From Octopus vulgaris (taxonomy: Eukaryota): DNA of 64,000 nt. The stretch spans positions 28,520,001 to 28,584,000 of the forward strand of contig OX597825.1 of the NCBI GenBank assembly GCA_951406725.2, read 5' to 3'. Of this stretch, positions 1-58,196 are shown in pieces (position 1 is the first letter of the stretch; every line of letters begins with the position of its first letter). Made by a program: the position numbers and the translations under genes. Below the pieces are notes generated by a model, which saw nothing but the letters and a program-made list of their open reading frames with translations, was not told where the DNA came from and made no database searches.

Positions 1-1
1 G

Positions 2-3000
2 GCTATCAAATACAAAATTAACTTACGCAATGAATTTGTCTTTGGGGCAGTAAAAGATTTAAAACCGAAGAATTTGTATGACAGTAAGCTGAAATCATCG
101 TTGGAAGCAGTGAAAAGAACTAACTTGAAAGTAATTTTTCTGTTTGCTCCATTCCATATACAGCCAATCGTCTTTCGAGAAGCCTATCTTATGAACCTTT
201 CTTCTCTGCATGGATTCCAATGGGTTTTAATGAAAAAATACGCGCGAGAGTTTCCATTTGAGAACCATTCGGTTTGTAACAAAACATTAGAATGCACATT
301 AGCTTTTACTGGAACCTACCTCTTTGATTCGACCTACAATGTATCGGGTTACCAAACAGATAGTTGGAAACGAGTTCTTAATTATTATTTTAAAGAAGAC
401 CGTGTACTTTACAAAGGTGGAAGAGTTCGTCATAGGTCCTTTGAAATAGGAGCGTTAATGGGATTGGGTTATGACGCCGTGCACCTTTACGCTAAAGCGT
501 TAGCCATACTTCTCAATAAACGACTAACAATTAGAGGTAACAAAGTTAATTGGCTCATGCGCAAGACAACTATACATGGACTAACAGATAACGTATCTTT
601 AAATGCATACGGTGATAGAATTGGTTATTTCGGTTATCTGGCCCAAGTTAACCCAATCCCACGTTGGCCATATTTGCCGAAATCTAAAGTTATAACTTAC
701 GTAAAGTGTATTAAGAGATCGGAAGACGGTATTCAATTAGAAATACCTTACGAATCGGAAATACTTCCTCACAATAAAACTGCGGCACTGGTAGCATTTC
801 CTGTCAGTAAGGCACATAACACTAGACGATACATATCTTTATCGGGGATGGTTAGTCTCAATACACAAAAAATGATGCCAAAAGAGGGTGAAGATTGGCC
901 GCCAACCATTTTTATTCGGACAGAAAGTATAGTTCCACCATATTATTGCGTTCATGCCTGTGGATACAAATTAAAAGACCCCGGTAATATTAATGTTTTC
1001 GATCGAGGAATATGTCGTCCTGGTAACAAATGCGAATGCTTTGAAGGATTCGGGGGGAAGCATTGTCTCTCTGTTCAGTGCCATTGTTTACACGGCCTTT
1101 GCACTATTGAAGGTTCTTGCATATGTAATCCTGGTTATACAGGCCCCTCTTGTGGTGCAGCAATTTGTGAGGATTGTAATTTTGGTGTATGTGTAAAACC
1201 AGGTGTATGTGAATGCACTACTATAGTATATTTCGGTGAAAATTGTGCTATTCATATTTCATCCATCATTGTTCCAATATTATTTGCAGCACTTATTCTC
1301 ATTGGTATCTTTTATGTCGTGGCAGGAATAACTAGCTCGAAGACGAAAAGTATAATCTATCAAGACTGGATGATTGATTGGGACAACGTTACTGTACCTG
1401 AAGAATTAGGTATGGTAGGACAATCCAAGGGAATAATTAACAAAACGGTTGCAGCTTATAGATGGGACGATGAGAACTGGTATGTGAAAAAGATTAATAG
1501 TAAGACAATTCCTCCTGAAGATAAAAAGATTATTTCAGACATGGTCAAGTTAACTAAAACTAGACATTATAATCTAATTCGATACGGTGGATGCTGTTTG
1601 ACTTATCCTAACGTCAGTTTGTTCATGGAAATTGCTGACAAGGGGAGTATAGCGGATGTACTTGCCAATGAAACATTTGAGATCGGATGGGAATTTGGAT
1701 TTTCATTTTTAAAAGATATATGTTGCGGAATGGAATATTTGCATGACAAATCTGAAATCAAAAGCCATGGACGTCTGAAATCTTCCAACTGCTTGGTTGA
1801 TAAGCGCTGGACTGTACGTCTGTCAGGATTTGGTGCACCGTCTCTTCGTTATGGCAGCTACAGAATCCCAGAGTCTGAAGAAATGTCTGATTTAAAAGAT
1901 CTTTTTTGGACCGCACCCGAACTACTAAGGGATAACACAAATCTCGATGGAGTAAAGTCGGGCACACCGCAAGGAGATGTCTATTCATTTGCTATCGTTG
2001 CATGTGAAATTGCGACGAAGGTAAAACCATACCATTACGAACTGAAACATTTAAGTGAAAAAAGCATTTTAGATCTCATTAAAGATTCACATTCACGGGC
2101 CAATAAAGAAATACGACGTGTATGGGAGGGTATTGGTGGAGGTAAAATGATTTTTACGAGACCAATTTTAAGTGAAGATTTATTACCACACAGTAATCTA
2201 TCTAAGAAGCTGTTTAAAATAATGCTCGAAGAGTCTTGGAATGAGAAGGCATCGTCTCGACCGACTTTTAATAAGCTTAGCATCATTCTAAATGAAATGT
2301 ACCCCATAAAAGGAGAACTTATAGATAAATTAATCCAACTCTTGGAAACTTACTCCAATAATTTAGAAATGGTTGTAATAGAAAGAACCAGAGAACTAGA
2401 AGAAAAAAAAGCTAAAGCTGAGCAGCTATTGGGCCAGATGTTGCCCCCGAAAGTAGCTTGTGAACTGAAGCAAGTTGGTAAAGTGATACCGGAATTATTC
2501 GAAAATGCCACGGTATTCTTCAGTGATATCGTAAATTTTGACCGAATATGTAAAGAAAGTAAACCAATGGAAATCGTTGATTTTTTAAATGAAGTTTATA
2601 AAATATTTGACTCAGTTTTGGACGGCTATGATGTTTATAAAGTGGAAACCATCAGCGCTTCCTACATGGTAGTTAGTGGTATTCCAGAAAAGAATGGTGA
2701 TCGCCATGCAGGAGAAATTGCAACAATGGCTTTAGATCTGATGTCATATGCTACTCTACTCCATGTTCCCAACACGGAAAGTAATGTGCTACAATTACGA
2801 ATTGGAATGCATTCCGGCTCGGTAGTAAGTGGCGTGGTGGGGAAACTATTGCCTAGATTTTGTCTATTCGGAGACACCGTCAACACAGCTGCCAGAATGC
2901 AGTCTAGTTCTTATGCCTTACACATTCAAGTGAGCGAGACTACTGAAGCAATTCTTGATTCTTTAGGCGGTTATAAATTAGAATGTAGAGGGGAAAGAGA

Positions 3001-3115
3001 AGTAAGAGGTCGCGGATTAATGACAACGTACTGGCTGTGGGGTAAGGACACATTTATGAAAGAATTACCTGATATATCCCTAGCAGTCCCTCTCTCACAA
3101 CACACATTCAAATAA
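2..3115 (+). CDS. Receptor-type guanylyl cyclase-like protein, copy 1 (5'-partial, no lesion in the visible part)
   Basis: The frame is open from base 2 to TAA at 3113-3115. It encodes the C-terminal part of an ANF-receptor-like domain (GYDAVHLYAKA, IHGLTDNVSLNAYGDRIG), EGF repeats, a TM helix (IIVPILFAALILIGIFYVV), a kinase-homology domain (HGRLKSSNCLVD, LFWTAPELLR, GDVYSFAIV), a coiled coil (LETYSNNLEMVVIERT) and a cyclase ([28 protein letters not shown]). The G6 run at 1052-1057 is in frame. By homology the start lies ~1.9 kb upstream of the window. Confidence 0.93.
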   Translation, partial: AIKYKINLRNEFVFGAVKDLKPKNLYDSKLKSSLEAVKRTNLKVIFLFAPFHIQPIVFREAYLMNLSSLHGFQWVLMKKYAREFPFENHSVCNKTLECTLAFTGTYLFDSTYNVSGYQTDSWKRVLNYYFKEDRVLYKGGRVRHRSFEIGALMGLGYDAVHLYAKALAILLNKRLTIRGNKVNWLMRKTTIHGLTDNVSLNAYGDRIGYFGYLAQVNPIPRWPYLPKSKVITYVKCIKRSEDGIQLEIPYESEILPHNKTAALVAFPVSKAHNTRRYISLSGMVSLNTQKMMPKEGEDWPPTIFIRTESIVPPYYCVHACGYKLKDPGNINVFDRGICRPGNKCECFEGFGGKHCLSVQCHCLHGLCTIEGSCICNPGYTGPSCGAAICEDCNFGVCVKPGVCECTTIVYFGENCAIHISSIIVPILFAALILIGIFYVVAGITSSKTKSIIYQDWMIDWDNVTVPEELGMVGQSKGIINKTVAAYRWDDENWYVKKINSKTIPPEDKKIISDMVKLTKTRHYNLIRYGGCCLTYPNVSLFMEIADKGSIADVLANETFEIGWEFGFSFLKDICCGMEYLHDKSEIKSHGRLKSSNCLVDKRWTVRLSGFGAPSLRYGSYRIPESEEMSDLKDLFWTAPELLRDNTNLDGVKSGTPQGDVYSFAIVACEIATKVKPYHYELKHLSEKSILDLIKDSHSRANKEIRRVWEGIGGGKMIFTRPILSEDLLPHSNLSKKLFKIMLEESWNEKASSRPTFNKLSIILNEMYPIKGELIDKLIQLLETYSNNLEMVVIERTRELEEKKAKAEQLLGQMLPPKVACELKQVGKVIPELFENATVFFSDIVNFDRICKESKPMEIVDFLNEVYKIFDSVLDGYDVYKVETISASYMVVSGIPEKNGDRHAGEIATMALDLMSYATLLHVPNTESNVLQLRIGMHSGSVVSGVVGKLLPRFCLFGDTVNTAARMQSSSYALHIQVSETTEAILDSLGGYKLECRGEREVRGRGLMTTYWLWGKDTFMKELPDISLAVPLSQHTFK

Positions 3116-3173
3116 AGCCTCCAGAGCATAAATTCATCTATAAAACACCATACGTATTGTAGTATGTGTTCAT

Positions 3174-3322
3174 TTATGTATGTATGTATGTATGTATGTA
3201 TGTATGTATGTATGTATGTATGTATGTATGTATGTATGTATGTATGTATGTATGTATGCATGTATATTTGTATGTATGTATGCATGTATGTATGTGTGTG
3301 TGTGTGTGTGTGTATGTGTGTG
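3174..3322. repeat. (TATG)n/(TG)n microsatellite just 3' of the gene; homologous tracts follow every copy
   Basis: Directly visible tetranucleotide and dinucleotide repeats. Confidence 0.95.
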
Positions 3323-3994
3323 CGTCTTTCCTAGTTTTTAATCATTAGAAATCTTCCACTGAGGACGGAGCCGGTTTCCAACAAAGATACAAGGCTCCAT
3401 CTGTGGGATGTAGTTAACACAGACAAATTCACAATTGGAACTTGAGAAAATTCTTGCATATATTTACTGTTCCACCCACAGATTGTACCTGTAATGTACG
3501 AATTAGCCGGCCAGTTTCTCTTTCTGAAAATCCCAGTTTATCCCGATTCTTACTAAAGCATTTACTGACAAAACCTAATGCTCTAATTATTATTTGTATG
3601 AATATGAATTCATAGTCTGGATATAGAAGCTGCAGGTTTCGAAGTGGTTGTCCATAGATATTTTCTTTTTCTTTGATTTTCTATGAGTTATTTATATCTA
3701 CAGAGCAGCTGACCTCTATGATGATACATATCTTTGTCCGTTGTCCCAAACAACAATATCCAGTCTGTTATGTTTACATTTGACAGAAACTTTAATGGGA
3801 ATATTCCGCTACTATCCCTTGAGTTGGTGTTTATCAATGTATTTCATAACACGGATTTTTAAGGGTTATTTCAGGATACACTTTATTGCGGATGGCATTC
3901 TGAACAGTTTTAGCTACATCATGACGCATAGGGAGTTAGTACCGTGGCGACTTTTTAAGATAGCAGCTAATCACATGCGGGATGACTTCCATGC
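3323..3994 (-). mobile_element. Degenerate 3' fragment of an RLE-type (R4/Dong-like) non-LTR retrotransposon, unit 1
   Basis: Hand translation of the minus strand gives EVIPHVISC..RY*LPMRHDVAKTV (zinc knuckle plus RHD), NIPIKVSVKCKHNRLDIVVWD (degenerate HNRPD) and IIEVSC..KEKENIYG, the restriction-like endonuclease motifs. It is flanked by (TATG)n on both sides. Confidence 0.75.
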
Positions 3995-4250
3995 GTGTAT
4001 GTATGTATGTATGTATTTATGTATGTATGTATGTATGTATGTATGTATGTATGTATGTATATATGTATGTATGTATGTGTGTGTGTATGTATGTATGTAT
4101 GTGTATATGTATATATGTTTGTGCATGTATGTATGTATGTATGTATGTATGTACGTACGTATGTATGTATGTATGTATGTGTGTGCATGTATGTATGTAT
4201 GTGTATATGTATATATGTGTGTGCATGTATGTATGTATGTATATTGTGAA

Positions 4251-4556
4251 GTTGCATGGCTCAGCGGTTACGATCAGAAAGTTATGAGTTCGAACCCCGG
4301 CAGCGCGTTGTGACCTTTAGCAAGATACTTTAATTCACGTTGCTCCTCTCACCAAACAAAAATGAAATGTACCTGTAATTCAAATGGGAGCAGCCTTTCC
4401 ACTTTCTATGTCACACTAGATCTTCCTCAGAATTAAATTCCGGTTACACGTGCCTGTGGAATGCTCCGTCACTTGTACTTTAATTTCACGGGTAGGCTGT
4501 TCCATCTATCGTATCAACTGGTACGCTGGTCGTCGTAGCCGACGGAAAAGTAGCGC
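4251..4556 (+). mobile_element. tRNA-derived SINE, unit 1
   Basis: Pol III A-box-like TGGCTCAGCGG and B-box GAGTTCGAACC, followed by a core-like GTGACCTTTAGCAAGATACTT; the element ends in the (TA)n/(TAA)n tract. Confidence 0.65.
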
Positions 4557-4686
<130 letters not shown>

Positions 4687-5089
4687 GGGAGTATAACTCC
4701 AAACTGAGAAAATGTGAACTTTACAATAGAAAAAAGTGACGGTGCTGTTTTTTTCTTAAAACGTACTGTATTCATATATTATTCGCATATAAATGTTAAA
4801 AAATATTCAGCCCATCTTCACTACAAAATGAAATTGAAATTGGTAACAATTGGAATCAATTCCACCATTCTACAAGATTTCATCTGATTTTTAAAATTGT
4901 TTCTAATTTTGAAAATTCCTCATGAAACTGTTTTGTTCACATTTTGTTTTTAATTCAACTTCACATACTTACATGTATAATAGAAAATTTGTTCCAATAA
5001 AAAGAAATGTGGCTATATTTGATGTTTTATTGAAAACTTTTATTATTCACTTTTCACTTGTAATAAAATTCATTTGGTTATTTCATTTA

Positions 5090-6870
5090 TCATGACTTTG
5101 ATAGATTTCGGCCAGTATAGACCCAGGACATGTCTAATTTAATAACACCAACTGGTGAAATCTTTTAGTGATATATTGGGCACCATGGCCCACTTTATCA
5201 AAGAGTTATTATTGTTGGAGACATATCTGGGTGTAGGAATTTTTGAAGAAATTTGTCCAGTGAACTTTTGAATTTCATGGGACCCGTTTCCGTTTTGACT
5301 TAATTTGATATTAAAGAGAGCTGGACCAGTTGAGGTAAAGTAGCTGTGGCATAGTGTTTTTATGTGTCCTGACTTCGAATTTTATAGTGGGCTGATAGCA
5401 CGGGGGCCAAGTCTTGGATGGATTTTAAAATTGATGCCAACATCATTTGTGGAATATCGATGGAATAATTTCCATATTCCAAAAATGATGTAGAGGTCCC
5501 GGCGGCGTTGGAGAGAGTAGAGATTAAGTTTTTTTGTCGACCCCAATAGTCAATGCCTGTTATGCCGTCCATCTTTCTTGTTATTGACATCTGGAGTGCT
5601 TCCATTCACGTAATGAGTCACTTCTGATTGGGAGACCACAGTGGGCAACAGTATTCAAGGTAGGGTCGAGCAAAAGAAAAGTAGAGAAGGATGATGGTGT
5701 GGGCATCTCTTGACCGGTAAGTTCTCAGAATATAGGAGTACAACTTGCGGGCCAAGTCAACCTTGTTGTTTACGGAGGAACTCCAGCTTAGATTGTAATC
5801 AACAATTACTTCAAGGTCTCTGGTGTTGTTGGATGACACTAGGGAGTCACCCAAGAGAAGGGCATGTAGCTGTTTCAGAGCATCCCCTTTTACGAAGCGG
5901 ACCAAATTAAACTTGTCTTCATTTAGAAGCATATTGTTCTTTTCCGCCCATTGGACAACAACAAACAGATCCGACTGAAGGCATGTTCGGTCTCCCATAG
6001 CGTTTATGGCCTTATGGAGTTTGGAATCATCTGCATGATGTCGTCTATGTTGTCATTGATGTTGATAAGGAAGAGGAGTGGGCCCAAAACAGTGCCTTGT
6101 GGGACACCACTACTGACTTTGGCTGAGATTGATCGGATTGCCTCAAACACAACATGTTGGGTTCTGTTCGTCTGGAAACTCTTTATCCACTGCAGCAGCT
6201 TTTCACGGACTCTAGTATTGGACAGTTTTTTTCAGCAGGATTTTGTGATTCAATCTGTCGAATGCCTCGTCAGCTTTGGAGCCTTCTCACAAAGCTTTTA
6301 AAATATCATCAAAATGGTGCAGAAGCTGCGGCAGGCAGTTCCTGCCATCACGGAAACCATGCTGGTTGGGGTTCAGCAGATTATTGTCTCCGAAGTAGTG
6401 AGTTATTCACGATTTCAACACCCTCACGAATACTTTAATGATATAAGAAGAGAGTGAAAGTGGACGGTAGTTCGCTGCAAGAGATTTGTTTCCCTCTTTG
6501 AAAACTGGAACGACAGACTAGGAAAGAAAATAATCAGGAATGCAGCCTGTGTCAAGTGAATTCCTCCAGAGCTCAGCTAGAGTGGGTACAATTTGATGTC
6601 GACATGTCCTCAGGACAGTGGGCGAGAACTTAACGAACCTACAACCGAGTTGTGTTTGATTGTATCTATTTCTGTTAGGATATCCGGTGCACCAAAATTT
6701 ATGCCAGATATAGTTATTTGAGGGTTTACATCACTGATATTAGCCGGATCAACCTCATTAGCGTTACTGAAAACAGAGTAGTAAACAAAAACGGAAGGAA
6801 ATGTATGTTCATCTGTTTCTAGGATGTTCATTCCAGTTGTATGGTAAACTGAAATGGTAACTGATTCAAC
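5090..6870 (-). mobile_element. Old degenerate CR1-like LINE, reverse-transcriptase remnant, unit 1
   Basis: Minus-strand fragments SGVPQGTVLGPLLF, LQSDLFVVVQWAEKNNMLLNEDKF, RPYLEYCCPLWSP and LYSLQRRRD resemble the young element at 20198-22453 but carry many frameshifts. Confidence 0.85.
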
Positions 6871-6900
6871 TGGTATTTTTTTTATTATTATCAATTTTCA

Positions 6901-6988
6901 AAGGATGAAAGGCAACGTTAAACTAGGTAGAATTTGAACTCAGAATGTAAAGCATTTTGCCTAGTGTGCTAATGATTCTGTCAGCTCG
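6901..6988 (-). mobile_element. Short SINE head fragment, present in each unit
   Basis: The minus strand reads ...CTGAGTTCAAATTCTACC...TTGCCTTTCATCCTT, with a B-box-like GAGTTCAAAT, resembling abundant octopus tRNA-SINEs. This rests on recognition only, not a database search. Confidence 0.45.
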
Positions 6989-7580
6989 TAGTCTTGTGTT
7001 TAGACTATATTAACATAGAACTGAGTATACCCCAGCACACATTACATGCACGTATATATTAATGATGTAAACAAATACATGACAAGTATGCATAATACTG
7101 AAAAAGCATGAAGTAAATACATGCAGACAAATATATTAATTTAAGAAATATAAAAAATATACAAAATACTTTAGAAATCAATGAAGGGACAAAAGAAAAA
7201 GTAAGATGATACATGTTGACATTATTAGGTAATATGTAATTTCACAGGCGCTAAACTATAAATTTCACAGGGTAAAACCTTAAAGTTGACACCGCTAAGT
7301 TGACACCGCTACAACGCAGAAAATGTCTGTCTCACTATTCGCTAACAACACACAGTTTTGTCGATTTTTAAATGTCTGTAACGGTTTCGTCAAATTTTTT
7401 CTCCGCTTCTTATGAATAAGAGTGGAAAACTACTTCAATATAACCGATTTTCAGATTTTTACTTCCTTTAAAAAAATGCATATTCTGTGAATGAATTTAA
7501 CTAGATCTAGGTGGTGATTGACCACGAAAAAAAACATAGATGTGAATGTGCGCGCGTGGATGTGTGCGTATGTGTGTGCG

Positions 7581-7633
<53 letters not shown>

Positions 7634-8329
7634 CCTTCCCCTGTTTTCTATCTGTCGCTCTCTCTCTTTCTTGCCCTCTTTTTCCCCGTCTGCAGCTTAC
7701 ACCTGACCTTTGGCCAGTCTTCCTTTCTTTCTCTCCCTTTTTCACTCCAGTTCCGTAGCTGAACGTTCGCAAATTCCCTATCTCATTGTCTTGCTATTTG
7801 CTGTTATCTATTCATTTAGGATGCCTTTTAAGCATTACCCACCATTCTTGCCTTTTTGGTTCTGAGGCTATATTTTGCTCGTTTCTTATTTATTTCGTCT
7901 TTTTCCATCGTCTTAAATTACATTTATTCACGTTCGTCTTTCCACTCTGCATTGTTTTGTTTGCTCTCGGCCCTATATTCTCCGAACTTTCGCCGGCACC
8001 GCTTGCATACGGAGTTCTCAGTCTTATCATTAATGGTGCGAAACTGAGTAATACCACCTAGTTGATAACAAATCGCAAATATTCTTGTCAAAAATGACAA
8101 AAATCAATGTTTTACCCTGCAACAAGTACCAAACATTCCAAAACAGTTGTGCAAAAACTAACTTGCCGCCCCGCAGGGCGAAAACCCTCCTCAAAACAAC
8201 GACAACTGTTCGACCTCAAGAGCGCAACCGTAACTTCAGCACACAAATCAACAACAAAAACACACCAATTAAACAAACACACTGAGCAACAGCAGCCGAA
8301 CCCAGAAGAATGACAAGCACCGGTTGGCG

Positions 8330-10050
8330 ATAAAATCTTTATTATGGTCAAACTGATCGTAGAAAGACAAAGACATTACAAGATAAACAAATACAAAAAT
8401 CTCATGAGTTCGAATGAGCATTAAGCTAAAAATGTACTGAAAAAATATTTTATGTAAAGATTAATTTTTACCTTTAACTATAACTTTTTAAACAAGTTTG
8501 ACTATAACGGAAATAAAGAAAGAAAACGAATCCGAACAGATCGAACCCGGCAGCCTATAAGGCCCAACAACTATCTTTTCCTTTCCTCAATGATTAAACT
8601 GGGTTACTAACACCCACCTATCTCATCACATCCTTCCATCGTTTCTCGTATTCACTCGGTGACAGGGTCTTCCTCTCAACCCCATCTTGCTCTTCAGATG
8701 GTATCTGAAATAGGACAGCAAACCGGGGCCAGAGACGAAGGACCCTGTCACAGAACCTTCCATTCTAGTCCTCCAAACACACTCTTTCAGTACTTCAAAC
8801 GTACAGTAAAAACATGCCTTACCTTCTTTTGAGTGTCCAGTTAGCGGTATCATCTTTATCATAGATCCACCCGACAGCTGTACTTGTCCCAGATTCGACA
8901 GCACGTGTTCAACGTAACATTTCAAGCTAGATAGCTCCCGGCATTCTAGAAAAGCGTGCTGGACAGTCTCATTTTCCAGCCCACATCTTGGACACGGCCG
9001 TGGTATTGACATTCGCTGCCTGGATAACTTATCGCGAACAGGTAAAGCATACCTGTAGCACTGACAGGTCAGGGATTTTTGGAAGTTATCCAAGTACCAC
9101 GAACTGAAAGATTTTTTAAACAGGTTCCCATCGAATCCTACAGCCCCTCCTAGAACGTCATCATTTTTTTTGCCTCTACCAGCCCTCTATAGAACACCGA
9201 GGTGGTATTCCTTTCCCAACTTGTCGATCAGCCAGAGTGCCTGACGGCACTCCTTCTGCCATAATGTTAGGTTACATCTTTTAATGAAACCGGGTTTAAA
9301 TCTCTCCAAACAGGCCGGTCGCGGCAAGAACTCCTACGCCAGCGGACTCCACACCTTATCACCCTCCAGGTGGTACCAGAGGTGTCTCAACCTCAACGCA
9401 TATCTGCGCATCATCAGCCAAGGCATTCCCAGTCCACCGTTTAACGGTTCCTCGCAGTAAAAAGAGCGCCTCACAAGTGGTTTCCTCCCTTCAGCAAAAA
9501 CTGGAAGAGGAGTCAATCTGTCCAGTGTCCAACGACACTGGACGATATCGGATTGTTCCTACAAGTGCCGAGGCGCAAACCGATCGATTCGACCTTGTAA
9601 ACTTTTGCCCTTGCCACCGCTTCGAATCGTCGGAGAGTATCTTCTACACGAAGTAGCTGAGTTACGTTGGATCCGATGAGGGTGACAGTTTCCCCTAAAG
9701 CAGAAAGAAACCCACTGCACCCGATTTCATTGGAGTTGTTTCCTAACTTCTCCAACTTCCGCAGTAATGGCTCAAGAACCAAGACGTACAGAAGCGGAGG
9801 CAAGGGACACCCTTGACGAACAGAACGCTTGATCGAAAACGGCTCCTTTAGGTAGCTGTTTATCTGGACTGTGGACTAGATGCCGCTGTACAAAGCGGAG
9901 ATCTTCCCGCGAAAGCCAGGGCCCAGCCTAGCCGCTTCGAGGACCGCCTCCAGGTACTGATGGTCTAACCAATCGAACGCTTTACTTTGGTCTAAATGGA
10001 CCTATGCCCTTCCTTCGTCGGTTAATTTCCCAACCATATCTAAGGTGTAG
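8330..10050 (-). mobile_element. Degenerate Tx1/L1-clade LINE ORF2 3' half, unit 1
   Basis: Minus strand gives KAFDW..HQYL, SVRQGCPLPPLLYVLVLEPLLRKL, GGLGMP and a C-terminal zf-RVT-like CPRCGLENETVQHAFLEC. It has a ~220-bp internal deletion at ~9514 relative to unit 2. Confidence 0.85.
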
Positions 10051-10054
10051 CGGT

Positions 10055-10790
10055 GAAGGTGAAGTTTCAGCCTTTCATTAAACTTTCTTCACATATTTTC
10101 AAAATAACTTGTTTCTTTAGCCACGTATCATTTCTCAGTCGTTGCTTACATCACCGCCTCATCCCAAAAGGTTTCCGCTTCCATTTCGCCCTACTCTCCA
10201 TTCTGCTTCAACCATCCTTCCCATACTCCGTTCTACATCCTACCGCATTATGGGTGCCACCATTTGCTCCAATCTCTCTAAAATACATACCATCGACCGC
10301 CCTCTCCCTCCGGCTTTTTCCATCTTTTCCTCCTCTCTGTCCCCCTCCCATTCTCACAAAACGTTGCCATATATAATTCATTTAACTCATCTCTTTCATC
10401 AATATTTTGCCAACACCAAACTTCGTAAACTCCACTCTCTCCTCCATTCCTTCACACATGATGCCACTATCCCAACTCCTCCACTACCTTCCCTGACACC
10501 CACTCCAACCCACCCATCCTTGTCCCTCCAAACGCCCCTCACACATCCACACTTCTCCGTCCCAGCCTTCCACCAGCCCTACCACTCCTACTTCTATTCC
10601 ATCAAATCCTCCTACTTCTATTCCGTCCTCCCCTTCTCTACTTCAGTCTCTTGTTACCATTCCCCCAGATCTTTTCTCTGAGGCGGATCGCTCCATCCTT
10701 TGAAGGGGCCTTCGTTTACTCTCCCTCACTCCATCCTGCAATGAATTTCATACTCCTGCTAATATCCACAACTTTGTGCGCCGTGGTGTG
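10055..10790 (+). mobile_element. Penelope-like element N-terminal fragment, unit 1
   Basis: HVSFLSRCLHHRLIPKGF, a Pro-rich linker, then VTIPPDL..SEADRSIL*RGLRF match the H..FL..C....IPKG and TIP....LS..E...L.KGL.F motifs typical of PLE ORF N-termini. Confidence 0.65.
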
Positions 10791-10845
10791 TGCGCTTTTC
10801 CGCTACACTCTACCCGCATCTAACTGCAACTTATACAGAAGTATT

Positions 10846-11262
10846 GGACCCTTTCTGTTTGAACGGCAGTTTTTAACACAATTTCTAGGTAACTAAAAAA
10901 TTTTAAACTTCGTATACTGGTAGAATGTGTTTATAAAACATCTTTTTCTCTTGGCTTTATTGGGAAACTTTCATAGTTTGTAAGATATTTCGTCTCTAAT
11001 TTCTTGCATTTCGGCAATTTCAACCAATCAATGACCGTCTATTGAGGTGAAAACATTTTGTGCCGTATGAATATGTCCCTCGTTTAAGAAACAGATTGGG
11101 TTTATTTACATTTGTGAAGAAAAAAAAGATACCCTTCCCCCAACCCTAACCCTAACGCTAAAACAGATTGAAATGCAATAGGTCGATCCTAGGGTCATAA
11201 TTATGGGTGACAATTTCATATGACACCGCTAGAAAAAACTGCCGTTCAAACCGAAAAGATCC
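10846..11262. mobile_element. Non-autonomous DNA transposon (MITE), unit 1, ~1.37 kb upstream of the gene start
   Basis: ~29-bp imperfect TIRs GGACCCTTTCTGTTTGAACGGCAGTTTTT and AAAAACTGCCGTTCAAACCGAAAAGATCC, with flanking direct repeat GAAGTATT / GAAGTATC. Confidence 0.85.
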
Positions 11263-12225
11263 GAAGTATCTACTTTTCACTATTATTCGTTCATACGCTA
11301 TTGTTTATTTACTATTGATTCACGAAATTATCTCAGATTCCAGATGTTATATAACGCAATTAAAAACAGCTCCGTATGAGAAGGGGAGGTAATCCCAAGA
11401 ATGAAGAAATTTCCAGAGGTGACAAACGATTAAGGGAAAGAAATGGCATACCAGAACAACAGGTAGATGTTTGGTTATGCGTATTTATATATGCGTCATT
11501 TGTTTAAAATTTGTATAAAATTCTATTATATGATAATGATATTTGGCACAATTTCGATTGTAGAGAAAAATGTAAATTTTTACAATCACACACTTGTCTC
11601 AGTTTCGAGGTGTCATTTACTAATAGAATTAAAGATTTCCAAAGCTTTTCGTGATCTGATTTCTTCAAAACACATCTAAAAACCATATCAAAAGCATTTT
11701 CATCTTTAAAATGTGACGGGTGTAACAGTAAAAAATTACACAGGGAAAACATGTCAGAATGCAATCAGGTAAAGCAGATCTACAATGGTATTAAATTATT
11801 CACTTACAAAATTTTCAAGTGTATCCACACGCTTGGAACCAACATGGAAACATCTTGCGACACATGTTGGGAATATCCTCTTCATTTTCATTTGGCTAAA
11901 ATTTTCTTGTTGTGAGAAAATCTGTTCATCTGAATTAATCAATAAATATATTAAGTATGTGAGCGCATGTGTGTGTGACTTCATACGTGTGTATGTATGT
12001 CTCAAGTATGTATGTATATATGTATACACGCACAAGCACACACACACAAACACACACAGATCCTTGCGCGTGCACGCACGCACACGTCGAACACAGCCAC
12101 ACACACACTCACGCACACATATATACGATTATGTGTATGTTTGTGATTACGTATGCTTATATGAGTGCAGGATTGTGTGTTATTGTGTGTGTGACGACAA
12201 ATGTGTACGTGTACGTGTGTATGTG

Positions 12226-12298
<73 letters not shown>

Positions 12299-12628
12299 TT
12301 TGTTTCTTCATTTGACCATTCCGAAATATAACAAATCCTTTCTTAAATTTTTCTTTTATCAGAGACGCTACTCTAAAACAATTTCATATGGAATTCAAAT
12401 TACGAAAGAAGAAAAAAAAAAAAAAAATAAACGCTTATTATCAGATCAAAAGTGAGTGTTTAACATATGAAGTTGCGTTTAAGAAAGACGTTGATAGATT
12501 TTTTGTTATTAGATTTATTTGTTTAATTGCACAGGCGCTCTGGCTAGCATTTAGTTTTTCATGTTGAAATAGAAAAATTACAATGCTTTTAAACGACAAA
12601 TGATTATTCATGAAATATCCGATGAACT

Positions 12629-15600
12629 ATGACAATTGCATGCCTCATTCTTATCTCTACTTGGATGTTTGTGACAGGACAATTGGAATTATCATTTCTA
12701 CAATTTCACGAACCTCCCGCAATTATACCCGATGATCCTTCAAAGTTATACTATTCAGTGCCACTCAATCAAATGATCAGCAAACCGATCATTGTCGTTG
12801 CGTCTTATTCAAACGAGACACCTTTTTCTGAGGGAGAAGTCAATATGACGGCTACAATAGACAGCTATGCTGTTTCGCCATCTGGCGAGATTAATACCAA
12901 AGATACTTGGGCAGAAAGTGGCGGCCAACTGTGTCAGAAATCAGCATGGTGGTTGAATTATCCGGAGCGATATAACAGACATCTTGCGAAAACTCGTTGT
13001 CATACACCGCATTCTTCCATTCTAATGAAATCACGAATTTTTAATGGAAAACTCATATTTGATTGGATTTACCATAAACATACCATTGTACCTCCATCCA
13101 TGCGAATGTTCAGGATCGAAATACCAGATTATAAAATATACGTCGACTCTTTCCCAATATTTGTAACCAAACCTGCACACCGGTTAGTTGTAACGAAACA
13201 ACCACCTTTATATGTTTTTGCTAATATCGATTTTGATGTTGAGGTTGAAATAAGAGATGAAAGAGGGAATACTCTCATAAATGGTCTTGATTCGGTAGCA
13301 ATTGTGGAAATGACAATTCCTTACAATTATAAACGTTTCTATGCTGACCCAGAGAGAGAAATGATGATTGATTACACTAAAATTCGAATGGATGGAAAGG
13401 ATGTAACAATTGATTTTAAAACACGAGATATAATAATGCGTCAACAAGCAAATTATGGTAGGGCAAAATTTACTGGAGTTCGAATTTTAGACGTTACAGA
13501 AAATTTGCAACTAAATATTACTTTAACCATGGCAAGAGACCCATGGAGCAGAATTCCTGCTTGCTCAGAATGTTTCCTTGACATCGAACGTGCAAGACAG
13601 TTGTCTAGTGATAGAAAGTTTATTACTTTCCAACGATTAACAACTGAGGAAGAAGAAAAGATTCTACCTGTTGTCTTCACGAGGAATTTCTCGGTATTAT
13701 ATTTAATGGTAGATCGCATTGTTCTGGACAACTTCTCAAAAAGTATGTATTATAGACTTAAAAATAATGGGGGAATTGTAGAAGTACCTATCACTTGTCC
13801 TTTACTTTACGGCATGAGTATTTTAGCACTAGATGCTAGAGGTCATCGGATCTATTCAGGCCCTCACTCCACATTACGCCTATCAATTAATACAATCCCA
13901 GAAAATATATGCTTTTCAAAACATAGCACCGTGAGAATGTCAGATGGAAAAATCCACTTATTGGTATCTATTTGTGAAGTAGTCAATTCCGTCAAATTAA
14001 GAATAACTGTAACTAGTAGGAACAATATTTATTTCATTACTCCGGCTTTTCGTATAACAGGAAACATTACAATTGGACATTTTGGTGACCTTCGATTTAG
14101 TGGTGATGGAAAGGAAATTGACTCACATATCAATTCTTTTATACGATTCGCAATCAATGATGTTAATAATGGTATTATTGTCCCAGAATTAAGAAAGAAA
14201 GGATTGAAATTATATTTGAAGTCGTATAATATTCCAAACGAAAAATCTGCAACCTATAGAAAACTTGGGGATTTGGAAACTATTTCAACTAATATTCATT
14301 TGGTTATAAGTTCAATTCCAGGAAATGTTGCTAATGTTTTTAGTCCGTTCATAGTGAAGTTTAGGATACCTTATATTTCGACGATCGATTCTACCAGAGA
14401 ATACATCGATAAAGATATATACCCATTGTATAATAGTATAAGTTGGTCAGAGGAGGCGTTCTATAATTCAGTGTTTCAATGTGCTAAAGATAGGTTTTGG
14501 ACTGACATTGTAATCCTTCGATATCACGATATTAATTTAACTGGTTTATTCTATTCTGTGGCTACCAAATACAAAATTGACTTACGCAATGAATTTGTCT
14601 TTGGGGCAGTAAAAGATTTAAAACCGAAGAACTTGTATGACAGGAAGCTGAAATCATCGTTGGAAGCAGTGAAAAGAACTAACTTGAAAGTAATTTTTCT
14701 GTTTGCTCCATTCCATATACAGCCAATCGTCTTTCGAGAAGCCTATCTTATGAACCTTTCTTCTCTGCATGGATTCCAATGGGTTTTAATGAAAAAATAC
14801 GCGCGAGAGTTTCCATTTGAGAACCATTCGGTTTGTAACAAAAAATTAGAATGCACATTAGCTTTTACTGGAACCTACCTCTTTGATTCGACCTACAACG
14901 TATCGGGTTACCAAACAGATAGTTGGAAACGAGTTCTTAATTATTATTTTAAAGAAGACCGTGTACTTTACAAAGGTGGAAGAGTTCGTCATAGGTCCTT
15001 TGAAATAGGAGCGTTAATGGGATTGGGTTATGACGCCGTGCACCTTTACGCTAAAGCGTTTGCCAAACTTCTCAATAAACGACTAACATTTAGCGGTAAC
15101 AAGGTTAATTGGCTCATGCGCAAGACAACTATACATGGACTAACAGATAAAGTATCTTTAAATGCATACGGTGATAGAATTGGTTATTTCGGTTATCTGG
15201 CCCAAGTTAACCCAATCCCACGTTGGCCATATTTGCCGAAATCTAAAGTTATATCTTACGTAAAGTGTATTAAGAGATCGGAAGACGGTACTCAATTAGA
15301 AATACCTTACGAATCGGAAATACTTCCTCACAATAAAACTGCGGCACTGGTAGCATTTCCTGTCGTTAAGGCACATAACACTAGACGATACATATCTTTA
15401 TCAGGGATGGTTAGTCTCAATACACAAAAAATGATGCCAAAAGAGGGTGAAGATTGGCCGCCAACCATTTTTATTCGGACAGAAAGTATAGTTCCACCAT
15501 ATTATTGCGTTCATGCTTGTGGATACAAATTAAAAGACCCCGGTAATATTAATGTTTTCGATCGAGGAATATGTCGTCCTGGTAACAAATGCGAATGCTT

Positions 15601-18772: not shown

Positions 18773-23705
<4,933 letters not shown>

Positions 23706-24109
23706 GGGAGTATAACTCCAAACTGAGAAAATGTGAACTTTACAACAGAAAAAAGTGACGGTGCTGTTTTTTTCTTAAAACGTACTGTATTCATATATTA
23801 TTCGCATATTAATGTTAAAAAATATTCAGCCCATCTTCACTACAAAATGAACTTGAAATTGGTAACAATTGGAATCAATTCCACCATTCTACAAGATTTC
23901 ATCTGATTTTTAAAATTGTTTCTAATTTTGAAAATTCCTCATGAAACTGTTTTGTTCACATTTTGTTTTTAATTCAACTTTACAACCTTACATGTATAAT
24001 AGAAAATTTGTTCCAATAAAAAGAAATGTTGCTATATTTGATGTTTTATTGAAAACTTTTATTATTCACTTTTCACTTGTAATAAAATTCATTTGGTTAT
24101 TTCATTTAT

Positions 24110-45443: not shown

Positions 45444-48400
45444 ATGACAATTGCATGCCTCATTCTTATCTCTACTTGGATGTTTGTGACAGGACAATTG
45501 GAATTATCATTTCTACAATTTCACGAACCTCCAGCAATTATACCCGATGATCCTTCAAAGTTATACTATTCAGTGCCACTCAATCAAATGATCAGCAATC
45601 CGATCATTGTCGATGCCTTTCATTCAAACGGGACACCTTTTTCTGGGGGAGAAATCAATACGACGGCTACAATAGACAGCTATGCTGTTTCGCCATCTGG
45701 CGAGATTAATAACAAAGATACTTGAGCAGAAAGTGGCGGCCAACTGTGTCAGAAATCAGCATGGTGGTTGAATTATCCGGAGCGATATAACAGACATCTT
45801 GCGAAAACTCGTTGTCATACACCGCATTCTTCCATTCTAATGAAATCACGAATTTTTAATGGAAAACTCATATTTGATTGGATTTACCATAAACATACCA
45901 TTGTACCTCCATCCATGCGAATGTTCAGGATCGAAATACCAGATTATAAAATATACTTCGACTCTTTCCCAATATTTGTAACCAAACCTGCACACCAGTT
46001 ATTTATAACGAAACAACCACCTGTAACAGTTATGGCTAATCACGATTTTGATGTTGAGGTTGAAATAAGAGATGAAGAAGGGAATACTCTCATAAATGGT
46101 CTTGATTCGGTAGCAATTGTGGAAATGACAATTCCTTACAATTATAAACGTTTCTATGCTGACCCAGAGAGAGAAATGATGATTGATTACACTAAAATTC
46201 GAATGGATGGAGAGGATGTAACAATTGATTTTAAAACACGAGATATAATAATGCGTCAACAAGCAAATTATGGTAAGGCAAAATTTACTGGAGTTCGAAT
46301 TTTAGACGTTACACAAAATTTGCAACTAAATATTACTTTAACCATGGCAAGAGACCCATGGAGCAGAATTCCTGCTTGCTCAGAATGTTTCCTTGACATC
46401 GAACGTGCAAGACAGTTGTCCAGTGACAGAAGGTTTATTACTTTCCAACGATTAACAATTGAGGAAGAGGAAAAGATTCTACCTGTTGTCTTCACGAGGA
46501 ATTTCTCAGTACATTATCAAATTCTGAATAAAGTTGATATGGACACCTCATCAAAAAGTATGTATTCTAAACTTAAAACTAATGAAAATGTTGTAGAGGT
46601 GCCTATTAGTTGTCCTTTACTTAACGGCATAAGTATTTTTGCAATGGATTTCATACACCGTCGGATCCATTCAGTCCCTGACTCCATATTACGCCTAAAT
46701 ATTAATACAATCCAAAAAAATATGTTTGTCAAAGGATTACACTAGGAATATGTCAGAAGGAAAAGCTCTCGTATTTGTATCTATATGTGAGGTAGTCAAC
46801 TCCGACAAACTGATAATAACTTACGATGGTCCACCTACTGTTACTTACAGAACTCCAGCTTTTCGTATAATAGGAAACATTACAATTGGACATTTTGGTG
46901 ACCTTCGATTTAGTGGTGATGGAAAGGAAATTGACTCACATATCAATTCTTTTATACGATTCGCAATCAATGATGTTAATAATGGTATTATTGTCCCAGA
47001 ATTAAGAAAGAAAGGATTGAAATTATATTTGAAGTCGTATAATATTCCAAACGAAAAATCTGCAACCTATAGAAAACTTGGGGATTTGGAAACTATTTCA
47101 ACGAATATTCATTTGGTTATAAGTTCCATTCCAGCAAATGTTGCTACTGTTTTTAGTCTGTTCTTAGTGAGGTTCAGGATACCATATATTTCGACGATCG
47201 ATTCTACCAGACAACACATCGATAAAGATATATACCCATTGTATTATTGTATACGTTGGTCAGAGGTGGTGTTCTATAATTCAGTGTTTCAATGTGCTAA
47301 AGATAAGTTTTGGACTGACATTGTAATCCTTCGATATCACGATATTAATTTAACTGGTTTATTCAAATGCTTTGAAGGATTCGGGCGGAAGCATTGTCAC
47401 TCTGTTCAGTGCCATTGTTTACACGGCCTTTGCACTATTGAAGGTTCTTGCATATGTAATCCTGGTTATACAGGCCCCTCTTGTGGTGCAGTAATTTGTG
47501 AGGATTGTAATTTTGGTGTATGTGTAAAACCAGGTGTATGTGAATGCACTACTATAGTATATTTCGGTGAAAATTGTGCTATTCATGTTTCATCCATCAT
47601 TGTTCCAATATTATTTGCAGCACTTATTCTCATTGGTATCTTTTATGTCGTGGCAGGAATAACTAGCTCGAAGACGAAAAGTATAATCTATCAAGACTGG
47701 ATGATTGATTGGGACAACGTTACTGTACCTGAAAAATTAGGTATGGTAGGACAATCCAAGGGAATAATTAACAAAACGGTTACAGCTCATAGATGGGACG
47801 ATGAGAACTGGTATGTAAAAAAGATTAATAGTAAGACAATTCCTCCTGATGATAAAAAGATTATTTCAGACATGGTCAAGTTAACTAAAACTAGACATTA
47901 TAATCTGATTCGATACGGTGGATGATGTTTGACTTATCCTAACGTCAGTTTGTTCATGGAAATTGCTGACAAGGGGAGTATAGCGGATGTACTTACCAAT
48001 GAAACATTTGAGATCGGATGGGAATTTGTATTTTCATTTTTAAAAGATATATGTTGCGGAATGGAATATTTGCACGACAAATCTGAAATCAAAAGCCATG
48101 GACGTCTGAAATCTTCCAACTGCTTGGTTGATAAGCGCTGGACTGTACGTCTGTCAGGATTTGGTGCACCGTCTCTTCGTTATGGCAGCTACAGAATCCC
48201 AGAGTCTGAAGAAATGGTTGATTTAAAAGATCTTTTTTGGACCGCACCCGAACTACTGAGGGATAACACAAATCTCGATGGAGTAAAGTCGGGCACACCG
48301 CAAGGAGATGTCTATTCATTTGCTATCATTGCGTGTGAAATTGCGACGAAGGTAAAACCATACCATTACGAACTGAAACATTTAAGTGAAAAAAGCATTT

Positions 48401-49444
48401 TAGATCTCATTAAAGATTCACATTCACGGGCCAATAAAGAAATACGACGTGTATGGGAGAGTATTGGTGGAGGTAAAATGATTTTTACGAGACCAATTTT
48501 AAGTGAAGATTTATTACCAAACAGTAATCTATCTAAGAAGCTGTTTAAAAAAATGCTCGAAGAGTCTTGGAATGAGAAGGCATCGTCACGACCGACTTTT
48601 AATAAGCTTAGCATCATTCTAAATCAAATGTACCCCATTAAAGGAGAACTTATAGATAAATTAATCCACCTCTTGGAAACTTATTCCAATAATTTAGAAA
48701 TGGTTGTAATAGAAAGAACCAGAGAAATAGAAGAAAAAAAAGCTAATGCTGAGCAGCTATTGGGCCAGATGTTGCCCCCGAAAGTAGCTTGTGAACTGAA
48801 GCAAGTTGGTGAAGTGATACCGGAATTATTCGAAAATGCCACGGTATTCTTCAGTGATATCGTGAATTTTGGCCGAATATGTAAAGAAAGTAAACCAATG
48901 GAAATCGTTGATTTTTTAAATGAAGTTTATAAATTATTTCACTCAGTTTTGGACGGCTATGATGTTTATAAAGTGGAAACCATCAGCGCTTCCTACATGG
49001 TAGTTAGTGGTATTCCAGAAAAGAATGGTGATCGCCATGCAGGAGAAATTGCAACAATGGCTTTAGATCTGATATCATGTTACTCTACACCATGTTCCCA
49101 ACACGGAAAGTAATGTGCTACAATTACGAATTGGAATGCATTCCGGCCCGGTAGTAAGTGGCGTGGTGGGGAAACTATTGCCTAGATTTTGTCTATTCGG
49201 AGACACCGTCAACACAGCTTCCAGAATGCAGTCTAGTTCTTATGCCTTACACATTCAAGTGAGCGAGAATACTGCAGCAATTCTTGATTCTTTAGGCGGT
49301 TATAAATTAGAATGTAGAGGGGAAAGAGAAGTAAGAGGTCGCGGATTAATGACAACGTACTAGCTGTGGGGTAAGGACACATTTATGAAAGAATTACCTG
49401 ATATATCCCTAGCAGTCCCTCTCTCACAACACAAATTCAAATAA
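45444..49444 (+). pseudogene. Receptor guanylyl cyclase-like pseudogene, copy 4
   Basis: TGG>TGA at 45723-45725; 2-bp deletion at ~46722; ~1041-bp in-frame deletion at ~47364; TGC>TGA at 47923-47925; 2-bp deletion at ~49077; TGG>TAG at 49361-49363. Confidence 0.93.
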
Positions 49445-50791: not shown

Positions 50792-51339
50792 GGGAGTATA
50801 ACTCCAAACTAATAATAGGGAGTATAACTCCAAACTTACACACACACACACACACACCCGCACACACACACACACTCGCACGCACGCACACACACAAATG
50901 CATACATACATACATACATACATACATACATACATACATACACACATTTTCACTCACAAAATCTGAACTTAACAACAGAAAAAAGTGACGGTGCTGTTTT
51001 TTTCTTAAAACGTACTGTATTCATATATTATTCGCATATTAATGTTAAAAAATATTTAGCCCATCTCCTCTACAAAATGAACTTGAAATTGGTAACAATT
51101 GGAATCAATTCCACCATTCTACAAGATTTCATCTGATTTTTAAAATTGTTTCTAATTTTGAAAATTCCTCATGAAACTGTTTTGTTCACATTTTGTTTTT
51201 AATTCAACTTCACATACTTACATGTATAATAGAAAATTTGTTTCAATAAAAAGAAATGTGGCTATATTTGATGTTTTATTGAAAAATTTTATTATTCACT
51301 TTTCACTTGTAATAAAATTCATTTGGTTATTTCATTTAT

Positions 51340-53808: not shown

Positions 53809-53876
<68 letters not shown>

Positions 53877-55266: not shown

Positions 55267-58196
55267 CACTATCAAATTCTGAATAAAGTTGATATGGACA
55301 CCTCATCAAAAAGTATGTATTCTAAACTTAAAACTAATGAAAATGTTGTAGAGGTGCCTATTAGTTGTCCTTTACTTAACGGCATAAGTATTTTTGCAAT
55401 GGATTTCATACACCGTCGGATCCATTCAGGTCCTGACTCCATATTACGCCTAAATATTAATACAATCCAAAAAAATATATGTTTGTCAAAGGATTACACT
55501 AGGAATATGTCAGAAGGAAAAACTCTCGTATTTGTATCTATATGTGAGGTAGTCAACTCCGTCAAACTGATAATAACTTACGATGGTCCACCTACTGTTA
55601 CTTACAGAACTCCAGCTTTTCGTATAATAGGAAACATTACAATTGGACATTTTGGTGACCTTCGATTTAGTGGTGATGGAAAGGAAATTGACTCACATAT
55701 CAATTCTTTTATACGATTCGCAATCAATGATGTTAATAATGGTATTATTGTCCCAGAATTAAGAAAGAAAGGATTGAAATTATATTTGAAGTCGTATAAT
55801 ATTCCAAACGAAAAATCTGCAACCTATAGAAAACTTGGGGATTTGGAGACTATTTCAACTAATATTCATTTGGTTATAAGTTCCATTCCAGGAAATGTTG
55901 CTACTGTTTTTAGTCTGTTCTTAGTGAAGTTTATGATACCTTATATTTCGACGATCGATTCTACAAGAGAACACATCGATAAAGATATATACCCATTGTA
56001 TAATAGTATAAGTTGGTCAGAGGTGGTGTTCTATAATTCAGTGTTTCAATGTGCTAAAGATAGGTCTTGGACTGACATTGTAATCCTTCGATATCACGAT
56101 ATTAATTTAACTGGTTTATTCAAATGCTTTGAAGGATTCGGGCGGAAGCATTGTCACTCTGTTCAGTGCCATTGTTTACACGGCCTTTGCACTATTGAAG
56201 GTTCTTGCATATGTAATCCTGGTTATACAGGCCCCTCTTGTGGTGCAGCAATTTGTGAGGATTGTAATTTTGGTGTATGTGTAAAACCAGGAGTATGTGA
56301 ATGCACTACTATAGTATATTTCGGTGAAAATTGTGCTATTCATATTTCATCCATCATTGTTCCAATATTATTTGCAGCACTTATTCTCATTGGTATCTTT
56401 TATGTCGTGGCAGGAATAACTAGCTCGAAGACGAAAAGTATAATCTATCAAGACTGGATGATTGATTGGGACAACGTTACTGTACCTGAAAAATTAGGTA
56501 TGGTAGGACAATCCATACCTAATAATTAACAAAACGGTTGCAGCTTATAGATGGGACGATGAGAACTGGTATGTAAAAAAGATTAATAGTAAGACAATTC
56601 CTCCTGATGATAAAAAGATTATTTCAGACATGGTCAAGTTAACTAAAACTAGACATTATAATCTGATTCGATACGGTGGATGATGTTTGACTTATCCTAA
56701 TGTCAGTTTGTTCATGGAAATTGCTGACAAGGGGAGTATAGCGGATGTACTTGCCAATGAAACATTTGAGATCGGATGGGAATTTGGATTTTCATTTTTA
56801 AAAGATATATGTTGCGGAATGGAATATTTGCACGACAAATCTGAAATCAAAAGCCATGGACGTCTGAAATCTTCCAACTGCTTGGTTGATAAGCGCTGGA
56901 CTGTACGTCTGTCAGGATTTGGTGCACCGTCTCTTCGTTATGGCAGCTACAGAATCCCAGAGTCTGAAGAAATGGCTGATTTAAAAGATCTTTTTTGGAC
57001 CGCACCCGAACTACTGAGGGAAAACACAAATCTCGATGTAGTAAAGTCGAGCACACCGCAAGGAGATGTCTATTCATTTGCTATCGTTGCGTGTGAAATT
57101 GCGACGAAGGTAAAACCATACCATTACGAACTGAAACATTTAAGTGAAAAAAGCATTTTAGATCTCATTAAAGATTCACATTCACGGGCCAATAAAGAAA
57201 TACGACGTGTATGGGAGAGTATTGGTGGAGGTAAAATGATTTTTACAAGACCAATTTTAAGTGAAGATTTATTACCAAACAGTAATCTATCTAAGAAGCT
57301 GTTTAAAAAAATGCTCGAAGAGTCTTGGAATGAGAAGGAATCTTCACGACCGACTTTTAATAAGCTTAGCATCATTCTAAATCAAATGTACCCCATTAAA
57401 GGAGAACTTATAGATAAACTAATCCACCTCTTGGAAACTTACTCCAATAATTTAGAAATGGTTGTATTAGAAAGAACCAGAGAACTAGAAGAAAAAAAAG
57501 CTAAAGCTGAGCAGCTATTGGGCCAGATGTTGCCCCCGAAAGTTGCTTGTGAACTGAAACAAGTTGGTGAAGTGATACCGGAATTATTCGAAAATGCCAC
57601 GGTATTCTTCAGTGATATCGTGAATTTTGGCCGAATATGTAAAGAAAGTAAACCAATGGAAATCGTTGATTTTTTAAATGAAGTTTATAAATTATTTGAC
57701 TCAGTTTTAGACGGCTATGATGTTTATAAAGTGGAAACCATCAGCGCTTCCTACATGGTAGTTAGTGGTATTCCAGAAAAGAATGGTGATCGCCATGCAG
57801 GAGAAATTGCAACAATGGCTTTAGATCTGATGTCATATGGTACTCTACTCCATGTTCCCAACACGGAAAGTAATGTGCTACAATTACGAATTGGAATGCA
57901 TTCCGGCCCGGTAGTAAGTGGCGTGGTGGGGAAACTATTGCCTAGATTTTGTCTATTCGGAGACACCGTCAACACAGCTTCCAGAATGCAGTCTAGTTCT
58001 TATGCCTTACACATTCAAGTGAGCGAGAATACTGCAGCAATTCTTGATTCTTTAGGCGGTTATAAATTAGAATGTAGAGGGGAAAGAGAAGTAAGAGGTC
58101 GCGGATTAATGACAACGTACTGGCTGTGGGGTAAGGACACATTTATGAAAGAATTACCTGATAGCAGTCCCTCTCTCACAACACAAATTCAAATAA
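55267..58196 (+). pseudogene. Receptor guanylyl cyclase-like pseudogene, copy 5 (5'-truncated)
   Basis: Lacks the upstream region and the first ~356 codons. It shares the ~1.04-kb deletion (~56121) and the TGA (56681-56683) with copy 4, and has a +1 frameshift at ~56516 and an 8-bp deletion at ~58161 that extends the last ORF to 58243. Confidence 0.93.

Follow-up and report, generated by a model that had tools for sequence, protein, structure and literature searches.

The receptor guanylyl cyclase array

The window analysed here is a 64,000-nucleotide stretch of the Octopus vulgaris genome (C12:28520001-28584000, contig OX597825.1), and it carries five tandem copies, all on the + strand, of one receptor guanylyl cyclase (GC) gene. 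These copies, c1 to c5, are part of a larger cluster whose other members lie outside the window. The C12 cluster holds 11 copies over ~177 kb (28,436,054-28,613,183), eight on the + strand and three older ones on the - strand (m1-m3, ~48% identical), and an unlinked paralogue on C18 is 38% identical. An initial annotation, made from the letters of the window alone, had described the five tandem copies; these are indeed present as whole-unit duplications, in a cluster that is in fact larger (11 on C12 and one on C18), and the genome-wide paralogue count that it had called for gives 12 genes. A genome search with 300 N-terminal residues returned 11 places, and a search by cyclase family returned the same loci. 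One uninterrupted frame of ~1,680-1,690 amino acids (aa) runs from a likely start in 7 of the 12 genes, and frames are intact in 6 of the 11 cluster copies.

An intact copy encodes, in order, a predicted immunoglobulin (Ig)-like module, a Venus flytrap, three EGF repeats, a membrane helix, a kinase-like domain and a cyclase, with an ectodomain of ~1,045 aa. In c2, on the + strand, the N-terminal all-beta module (aa ~18-480) lies at 12680..14068, the Venus-flytrap (ANF receptor) domain (aa ~481-900; Pfam PF01094, E 1e-13, and fold matches) at 14069..15328, the three EGF-like repeats and membrane helix (aa ~960-1085; Pfam and hydropathy) at 15506..15884, and the kinase-homology domain, coiled coil and class B (beta/C2-like) cyclase (Pfam and alignments) at 16035..17675. 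Both PF07714 (kinase-like) and PF00211 (cyclase) score above cut-off and PF07701 scores weakly (E 0.0014). The single helix corresponds to a hydropathy peak at aa 1063-1085, and the N-terminus is hydrophobic, as judged from hydropathy alone rather than by a dedicated signal-peptide predictor. An AlphaFold2 model of the ectodomain built from 21 sequences (predicted local distance difference test, pLDDT, 83.4) matches the flytrap ectodomains of GABA-B, CaSR and NPR1. A model of the first 447 residues of c1 is all-beta (pLDDT 88.7); its fold matches are weak, to Ig-like chains such as invasin and a mastigoneme protein (template modelling score, TM, up to 0.31), with the atlas giving Ig-like leads only, and the strand pattern suggests that this module probably consists of three Ig-like domains. 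The guanine-specifying residues E1526 and C1598 occur in 8/8 + strand copies, and a Pfam scan of the window proteins gave no match to the H-NOX domain. Taken together, the signal-like N-terminus, helix, flytrap, kinase-homology domain and cyclase support the assignment of the window genes as receptor GCs; this identity and the long ectodomain had both been proposed in the initial annotation, and Pfam domains, helix and fold matches agree with it. The genes had also been called intronless, which holds for the coding frame; an intron in the 5' untranslated region is suggested by acceptor-like sequences that precede the ATG by ~96 nt in c1 and 41 nt in C18.

The window opens within c1, whose 3' part (codons 645-1681 of an intact 1,681-aa frame) lies at 2..3115 and whose start is upstream (full frame L001:3070-8115). 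Full-length copies follow at 12629..17675 (c2) and 31101..36145 (c3), each with a sole lesion in the same G6 run, +1 G at 15611 and -1 G at 34083, respectively. This is the only G6 run of the frame; the longest run, an A8, has +1 A in c6, a copy beyond the window. Contigs from 4/4 sequencing runs aligned to c2 keep the in-frame length at 15611, for which reason the c2 and c3 frameshifts may be consensus or assembly errors; as contigs merge copies and lose rare variants, the in-frame length favours, without proving, such an error. A programmed frameshift at the G run was ruled out, as c2 and c3 slip in opposite ways and c1 is in frame. The copy c4 (45444..49444) has stops at codons 94 and 1175, 2-bp deletions at codons 424 and 1559 and a 1,041-bp deletion with its junction at 47364/47365, and c5 (about 55267..58196) has lost its first ~357 codons and carries the 1,041-bp deletion (56121/56122), +1 at codon 1120, a stop at codon 1175 and an 8-bp deletion near its end. 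These two copies, which have the large deletion and the stop at codon 1175 in common, are true pseudogenes, and the birth-and-death decay first proposed for the array stands for them; it is less secure for c2 and c3, whose homopolymer slips may be assembly errors. The 5' breakpoint of c5 falls within a region of old reverse-transcriptase fragments. Contigs of run X1, guessed to be RNA, lie over c2 in 17/30 bins at a depth of ~5-19 and were not counted as expression because DNA from an eight-copy array could yield the same; the C18 coding frame is covered in 0/20 bins in X1 and X12 and in 1/20 in X11 and X4, where the covered spot resembles a repeat, and these runs, which carry no tissue label, have no bearing on co-expression.

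The copies are whole-unit segmental duplications, ~89-98% alike in long self-matches with their flanks included. The duplicated units measure 10-18 kb and their non-coding parts are 93-98% alike; the first of these in the window (3116..12628) contains microsatellites and old reverse-transcriptase fragments and is repeated in each unit at that identity. Older reverse-transcriptase fragments (zf-RVT, weak RVT_1) lie in the repeat units at 8626-9186 and 27556-28320, both on the - strand. A long interspersed nuclear element (LINE) is inserted in unit 2 only, on the + strand at 19211..23722, with an endonuclease (19799-20173), one stop, a reverse transcriptase (20177-22453, a 758-aa frame) and long (AT)n flanks. 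The public gene models P0001, P0002, P0006 and P0041 (1,866-3,279 aa) are fusions of adjacent copies, and such models hide the receptor cyclase family.

Two paralogue classes with complementary cyclase residues

The cyclases were compared in an alignment of 26 proteins, of which 7 are intact frames from this genome and 19 come from databases; excluded were the four fused models, fragments, three entries with an incomplete cyclase (P0003, P0015 and P0019), other cluster members that were nearly identical, and two proteins found later, P0042 and P0052. Eight active-site positions were adopted from extracts of the published description (PMC3591389) and placed via alignments with GC-A, GC-C and adenylyl cyclase AC5. 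The rows fall into class A, the clade of the C18 gene (6 rows, including Argonauta P0020), class B, the clade of the C12 cluster (17 rows, among them the cluster frames that are intact), and the bivalves (3 rows). Position 8 of the active site is one that we take to be residue 1646.

In class A, the alpha-side D, D and R and the flanking G, T and G are kept in 6/6, as is a glutamate, and the beta-side C, N, R and K are lost in 6/6, with losses that differ between distant members (N to L or Q; R to T or N). In class B, the beta-side N, R and K/R are kept in 17/17 and C in 16/17, and the residues adjoining the alpha-side aspartates, G1489, T1491 and G1529, are lost in 17/17. Bivalve cyclases are canonical at all positions (3/3), and, among the cyclase positions that are invariant in bivalves, nine are kept in all of class A and lost in all of class B, and 15 show the reverse. 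In three cluster-clade proteins the class B loop agrees with that of AC5 C2, and N and R are absent from class A as they are from AC5 C1. Furthermore, a metal-binding aspartate is changed (D1530A) in 5/8 + strand copies, namely all five in the window (codon at 2657 in c1, 17217 in c2 and 35687 in c3); c0, c6 and c7 keep it, as do m1-m3. Neither c1-c5, through D1530A, nor class A, with C, N, R and K gone, holds the full catalytic set on one chain. The C18 gene and c1-c5 are two sets of paralogues with complementary catalytic losses, and other class B members lose flanking residues only. The initial annotation, correct in naming a receptor GC array, had missed both D1530A in the window copies and the complementary cyclase classes.

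The same A and B clades, with bivalves apart, are recovered from regions that exclude the cyclase, in quick IQ-TREE searches of the ectodomain (26 rows), the kinase domain (22 rows, four near-duplicates dropped) and the flytrap (17 rows). Support for the two clades in the Shimodaira-Hasegawa-like approximate likelihood-ratio test is 99/97, 95/88 and 99/90, respectively, and a single octopod-only clade holding all named octopod rows is rejected by the approximately unbiased (AU) test (p 2.8e-5). The kinase-domain phylogeny had been proposed as a check at the outset, and it yields the two clades. The class A gene has an intact frame, is named in O. vulgaris, Octopus bimaculoides and Argonauta, and is single-copy (C18) in this genome; a deep class A member, P0032, is probably from squid or cuttlefish, to judge from its place in the tree only. 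Argonauta has two class B copies (P0004 and P0005).

Full-length relatives were found in O. bimaculoides, Octopus sinensis, Argonauta, Potamilus and Crassostrea, and a cuttlefish fragment falls in one class B cluster. A profile search, whose 278 matches were mostly short repeated matches to unrelated Ig-repeat proteins, added a centipede protein of equal domain order (Strigamia P0052), plus fragments from Tegillarca and Gigantopelta. Because bivalves (Potamilus and Crassostrea, ~1,690 aa) and Strigamia share the ectodomain architecture, it is, on this comparison, old and not octopus-specific, and the expansion is recent. Lineage specificity, as first claimed, thus applies to the expansion and to the single coding exon that the genes have in this genome, and not to the architecture. 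The cyclase of P0052 (Strigamia maritima) is also without N and R, and its gene model looks incomplete. P0042, a full-length family member, has a cyclase with residues missing from both sides and may represent a third class that is catalytically dead.

Several other cyclase genes of the genome match exon by exon, and the other long cyclase frames were rejected as family members. Those on C16 (L019:5161-6717 and L021:5409-6959) are two long exons for the C1 and C2 halves of one adenylyl cyclase, ~270 kb apart, that on C29 is a multi-exon GC, and that on C4 has a different ectodomain. The C4 gene (L022:4386-7334, - strand) has a 983-aa frame with a PBP_like_2 ectodomain, helix, kinase-like domain and degenerate cyclase, a second odd type of receptor GC. 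Literature searches, with subscription journals outside their scope, found no description of this family, its Ig-flytrap-EGF ectodomain or its split cyclase, and six gene identifiers of the family had no mention in papers. One supplementary file each of PMC13218726 and PMC9068888 contained no match to family genes, and the oyster kinome table (PMC4883820) established no tie to it. The receptor architecture, which the initial annotation did not recognise from described GCs, is apparently undescribed, and its bivalve and centipede relatives are uncharacterised entries.

A model can be drawn from the domain order, the copy number, the two complementary residue classes that match the two clades and the canonical bivalve relatives; all beyond these observations is read from sequence. 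We consider it rather probable that c1-c5 act as variable beta-like subunits of a heterodimer, with the C18 paralogue as the predicted shared alpha-like subunit. An ancestral homodimeric receptor would have been duplicated before the octopod/cuttlefish split, with each daughter retaining one side of the active site. As class A is without beta-side residues and c1-c5 are without the second metal ligand, each would need what the other supplies, and neither is predicted to be active alone; strict dependence is expected only for these two, as both aspartates persist in most class B proteins. A and B together would have a single complete site between them, in the manner of soluble GC alpha/beta, adenylyl cyclase C1/C2 and DAF-11/ODR-1. 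That class A has a single conserved gene and class B has many suggests a shared subunit with variable partners; class A stays single-copy here, and class B would expand and swap modules through gene conversion and unequal crossing-over. The ligand could bind at the flytrap, which the third Ig-like domain beside it may tune, and the signal would pass through the helix and the kinase-like domain to a cyclic GMP switch.

Alternative readings of function and copy number

By analogy, the most likely single tissue would be sperm, sensing a peptide of the egg or female tract, an assignment that we offer tentatively. Tandem single-exon coding frames are typical of testis retrogenes, which also counts in this direction. 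Sperm receptor GCs have been reported in sea urchin and coral, and published lists of egg attractants include O. vulgaris and Sepia officinalis (PMC6826153, PMC6787079). Set against these points, there is nearly an even chance that the receptors instead serve neurons or epithelia in a chemosensory, endocrine or immune capacity, since the ancestral architecture is common to a centipede, which argues for a general role, the expanded receptor GCs of Caenorhabditis elegans are described as sensory (PMC5225109, in part) and the oyster has 23 of unassigned role in the portion consulted of PMC4883820. The most far-reaching version, that coleoids remodelled an ancient homodimeric receptor cyclase as a combinatorial system of one conserved alpha-like co-receptor and tandem, module-shuffling beta-like subunits for ligand specificity, that this is the missing sperm receptor for egg-attractant peptides and that its copy turnover aids species-specific fertilisation, is speculative and would probably prove wrong in at least some part.

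The pattern of variation bears on whether the array generates new specificities. Recent copies differ by 2.5-3.7% in the coding frame (96-97.5% alike) and c7 by ~9%, and the differences are confined to islands at aa 346-480 (the main one), 521-680 and 991-1125. The near-invariant cytoplasm first described holds among recent copies only (proportion of nonsynonymous differences, pN, 0.014-0.017), most of the ectodomain being equally invariant, and the variable N-terminal modules come down mainly to the island at aa 346-480. In the three islands the c1 and c7 types are distinct (c1 to O. bimaculoides P0003, 80/76/70%; c7 to P0015, 89/75/78%); over 521-680 and 991-1125, c1 resembles P0003 and c7 resembles P0015, and elsewhere copies within a species are closer. 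To judge from these alignments, the copies show a pattern of concerted evolution, and the c1 and c7 types had arisen before O. vulgaris and O. bimaculoides diverged. A c7-type third domain sits on a c1-type body in c2 (aa ~321-480), c3 and partly c6, and the copy differences appear to be largely patchwork exchange between two older paralogue types. Argonauta P0004 and P0005, which are 96-100% alike over most of the ectodomain and 39-74% over the EGF repeats, helix and start of the kinase domain, show the same conversion pattern. The third domain diverges fastest between species (55-61%), with a ratio of nonsynonymous to synonymous substitution rates (dN/dS) of 0.92-0.99 (95% intervals 0.55-1.7; p 0.15 against the other islands). 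No region has a dN/dS clearly above 1, and, with intervals this wide, the data do not show the diversification proposed in the initial annotation.

Accordingly, some weight, if less than even, must be given to a recent, near-neutral expansion in the copy number of one or two functional genes, whose extra copies drift and decay without gaining new ligand specificities. The close likeness of the coding frames, a dN/dS near 0.9 in several ectodomain regions among recent copies and the two pseudogenes among the five window copies are what such drift would leave. However, the two types are older than the O. bimaculoides split and have stayed distinct in the three islands, with a dN/dS of 0.41-0.48 in the two tested stretches that distinguish them, 6/11 cluster frames are intact, and Argonauta also has two class B copies. 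Neutral expansion and the heterodimer are compatible.

Several points weigh against the heterodimer itself. Class B keeps the first aspartate in 17/17 and the second in 16/17, with all or nearly all of the eight published positions, and class B proteins may, on this sequence evidence, be active as homodimers. The D1530A change may reflect drift within a young sub-array that is decaying, as two of its five carriers are plainly pseudogenes and two more have frameshifts in the assembled sequence. Some of the 26 rows are near-duplicates of one another, and a single origin of the split means that the counts cannot be treated as independent events; the sites, too, were picked after the alignment had been viewed, which makes the Fisher p of 0.029 descriptive. 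Similarly, the group held together in the AU test was chosen with earlier trees in view, and the trees are quick searches; that of the ectodomain gave a warning of long branches coming together where class A joins, which those of the kinase domain and flytrap did not. The wholly degenerate cyclase of P0042 indicates that the family tolerates dead cyclases, and the partner of class A could instead be some unrelated cyclase.

An explanation built on the same points is that class B proteins are ordinary homodimeric cyclases with an odd loop, that class A proteins are inactive and act as decoys or dominant-negative regulators, and that the D1530A copies are dead or need aspartate-keeping sisters, of which this genome has c0, c6, c7 and m1-m3. 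We consider this rather unlikely, as the alpha-side motifs are unchanged in 6/6 class A proteins down to ~49% identity, which is unexpected for a decoy, and class B alters exactly those motifs in 17/17. The weakest alternative, an assembly artefact in which haplotypes were falsely duplicated, could draw on the three copies damaged at homopolymers only (c2, c3 and c6) and on the fused public models, and is largely refuted by the nested shared changes (D1530A in c1-c5, the deletion and stop in c4-c5), the LINE confined to one unit, the 2.5-9% divergence between copies, the recurrence of the 1,041-bp deletion junction in another run (X6) and the presence of the two copy types in O. bimaculoides.

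Comparison with known receptor cyclases

If the heterodimer is confirmed, it would be an independent case of an obligate heterodimeric receptor GC, with a homodimeric ancestor still visible in bivalves and a design of one shared subunit with variable partners. The reading predicts that any window copy expressed alone would give no signal, which matters for deorphanising these receptors. In addition, the family supplies concrete candidates for the cephalopod egg-attractant receptor.

Compared with GC-A/NPR1 and GC-C, the octopus proteins are alike in the flytrap ectodomain (model against NPR1 8tg9, target TM 0.73), the single helix, the kinase-homology domain, the coiled coil and a cyclase with the guanine-specifying E and C (E 1e-60). 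They differ in an added ~460-aa N-terminal all-beta module and three EGF repeats, in a single coding exon, and in the catalytic set, which is complete in GC-A and GC-C and split between paralogue classes in octopus. The bivalve and centipede homologues (Potamilus P0017/P0018, Crassostrea P0033/P0037 and Strigamia P0052), all uncharacterised database entries, share the architecture and length of the ectodomain, whereas the bivalve cyclases are fully canonical.

Sea-urchin sperm receptor GCs are ~1,050 aa long, and the octopus proteins, at 1,681 aa, depart from this flytrap-only speract/resact architecture. The speract/resact receptor and coral GC-A are nevertheless receptor GCs too, and public models of the octopus genes are auto-named 'speract receptor-like'. 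According to extracts of PMC6787079, coral GC-A has 1,049 aa and a conventional catalytic set, unlike the longer octopus proteins with their extra modules.

The division of the active site itself also has parallels. Soluble GC alpha/beta and adenylyl cyclase C1/C2 divide the active-site positions in the same way (PMC3591389, in part; AC5; the adenylyl cyclase halves of this genome), but the octopus proteins are membrane receptors without H-NOX, and class B mostly keeps both aspartates, unlike adenylyl cyclase C2. Another counterpart is DAF-11/ODR-1 of C. elegans, named by a 2017 review, in the sections consulted, as the first obligate heterodimeric receptor GC, in which two receptor GC subunits each give essential residues to one site and the ectodomain of ODR-1 is dispensable (PMC5225109). 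The nematode system is one pair only, whereas the octopus pairing, as predicted here, would join one shared subunit to an expanding set of partners.

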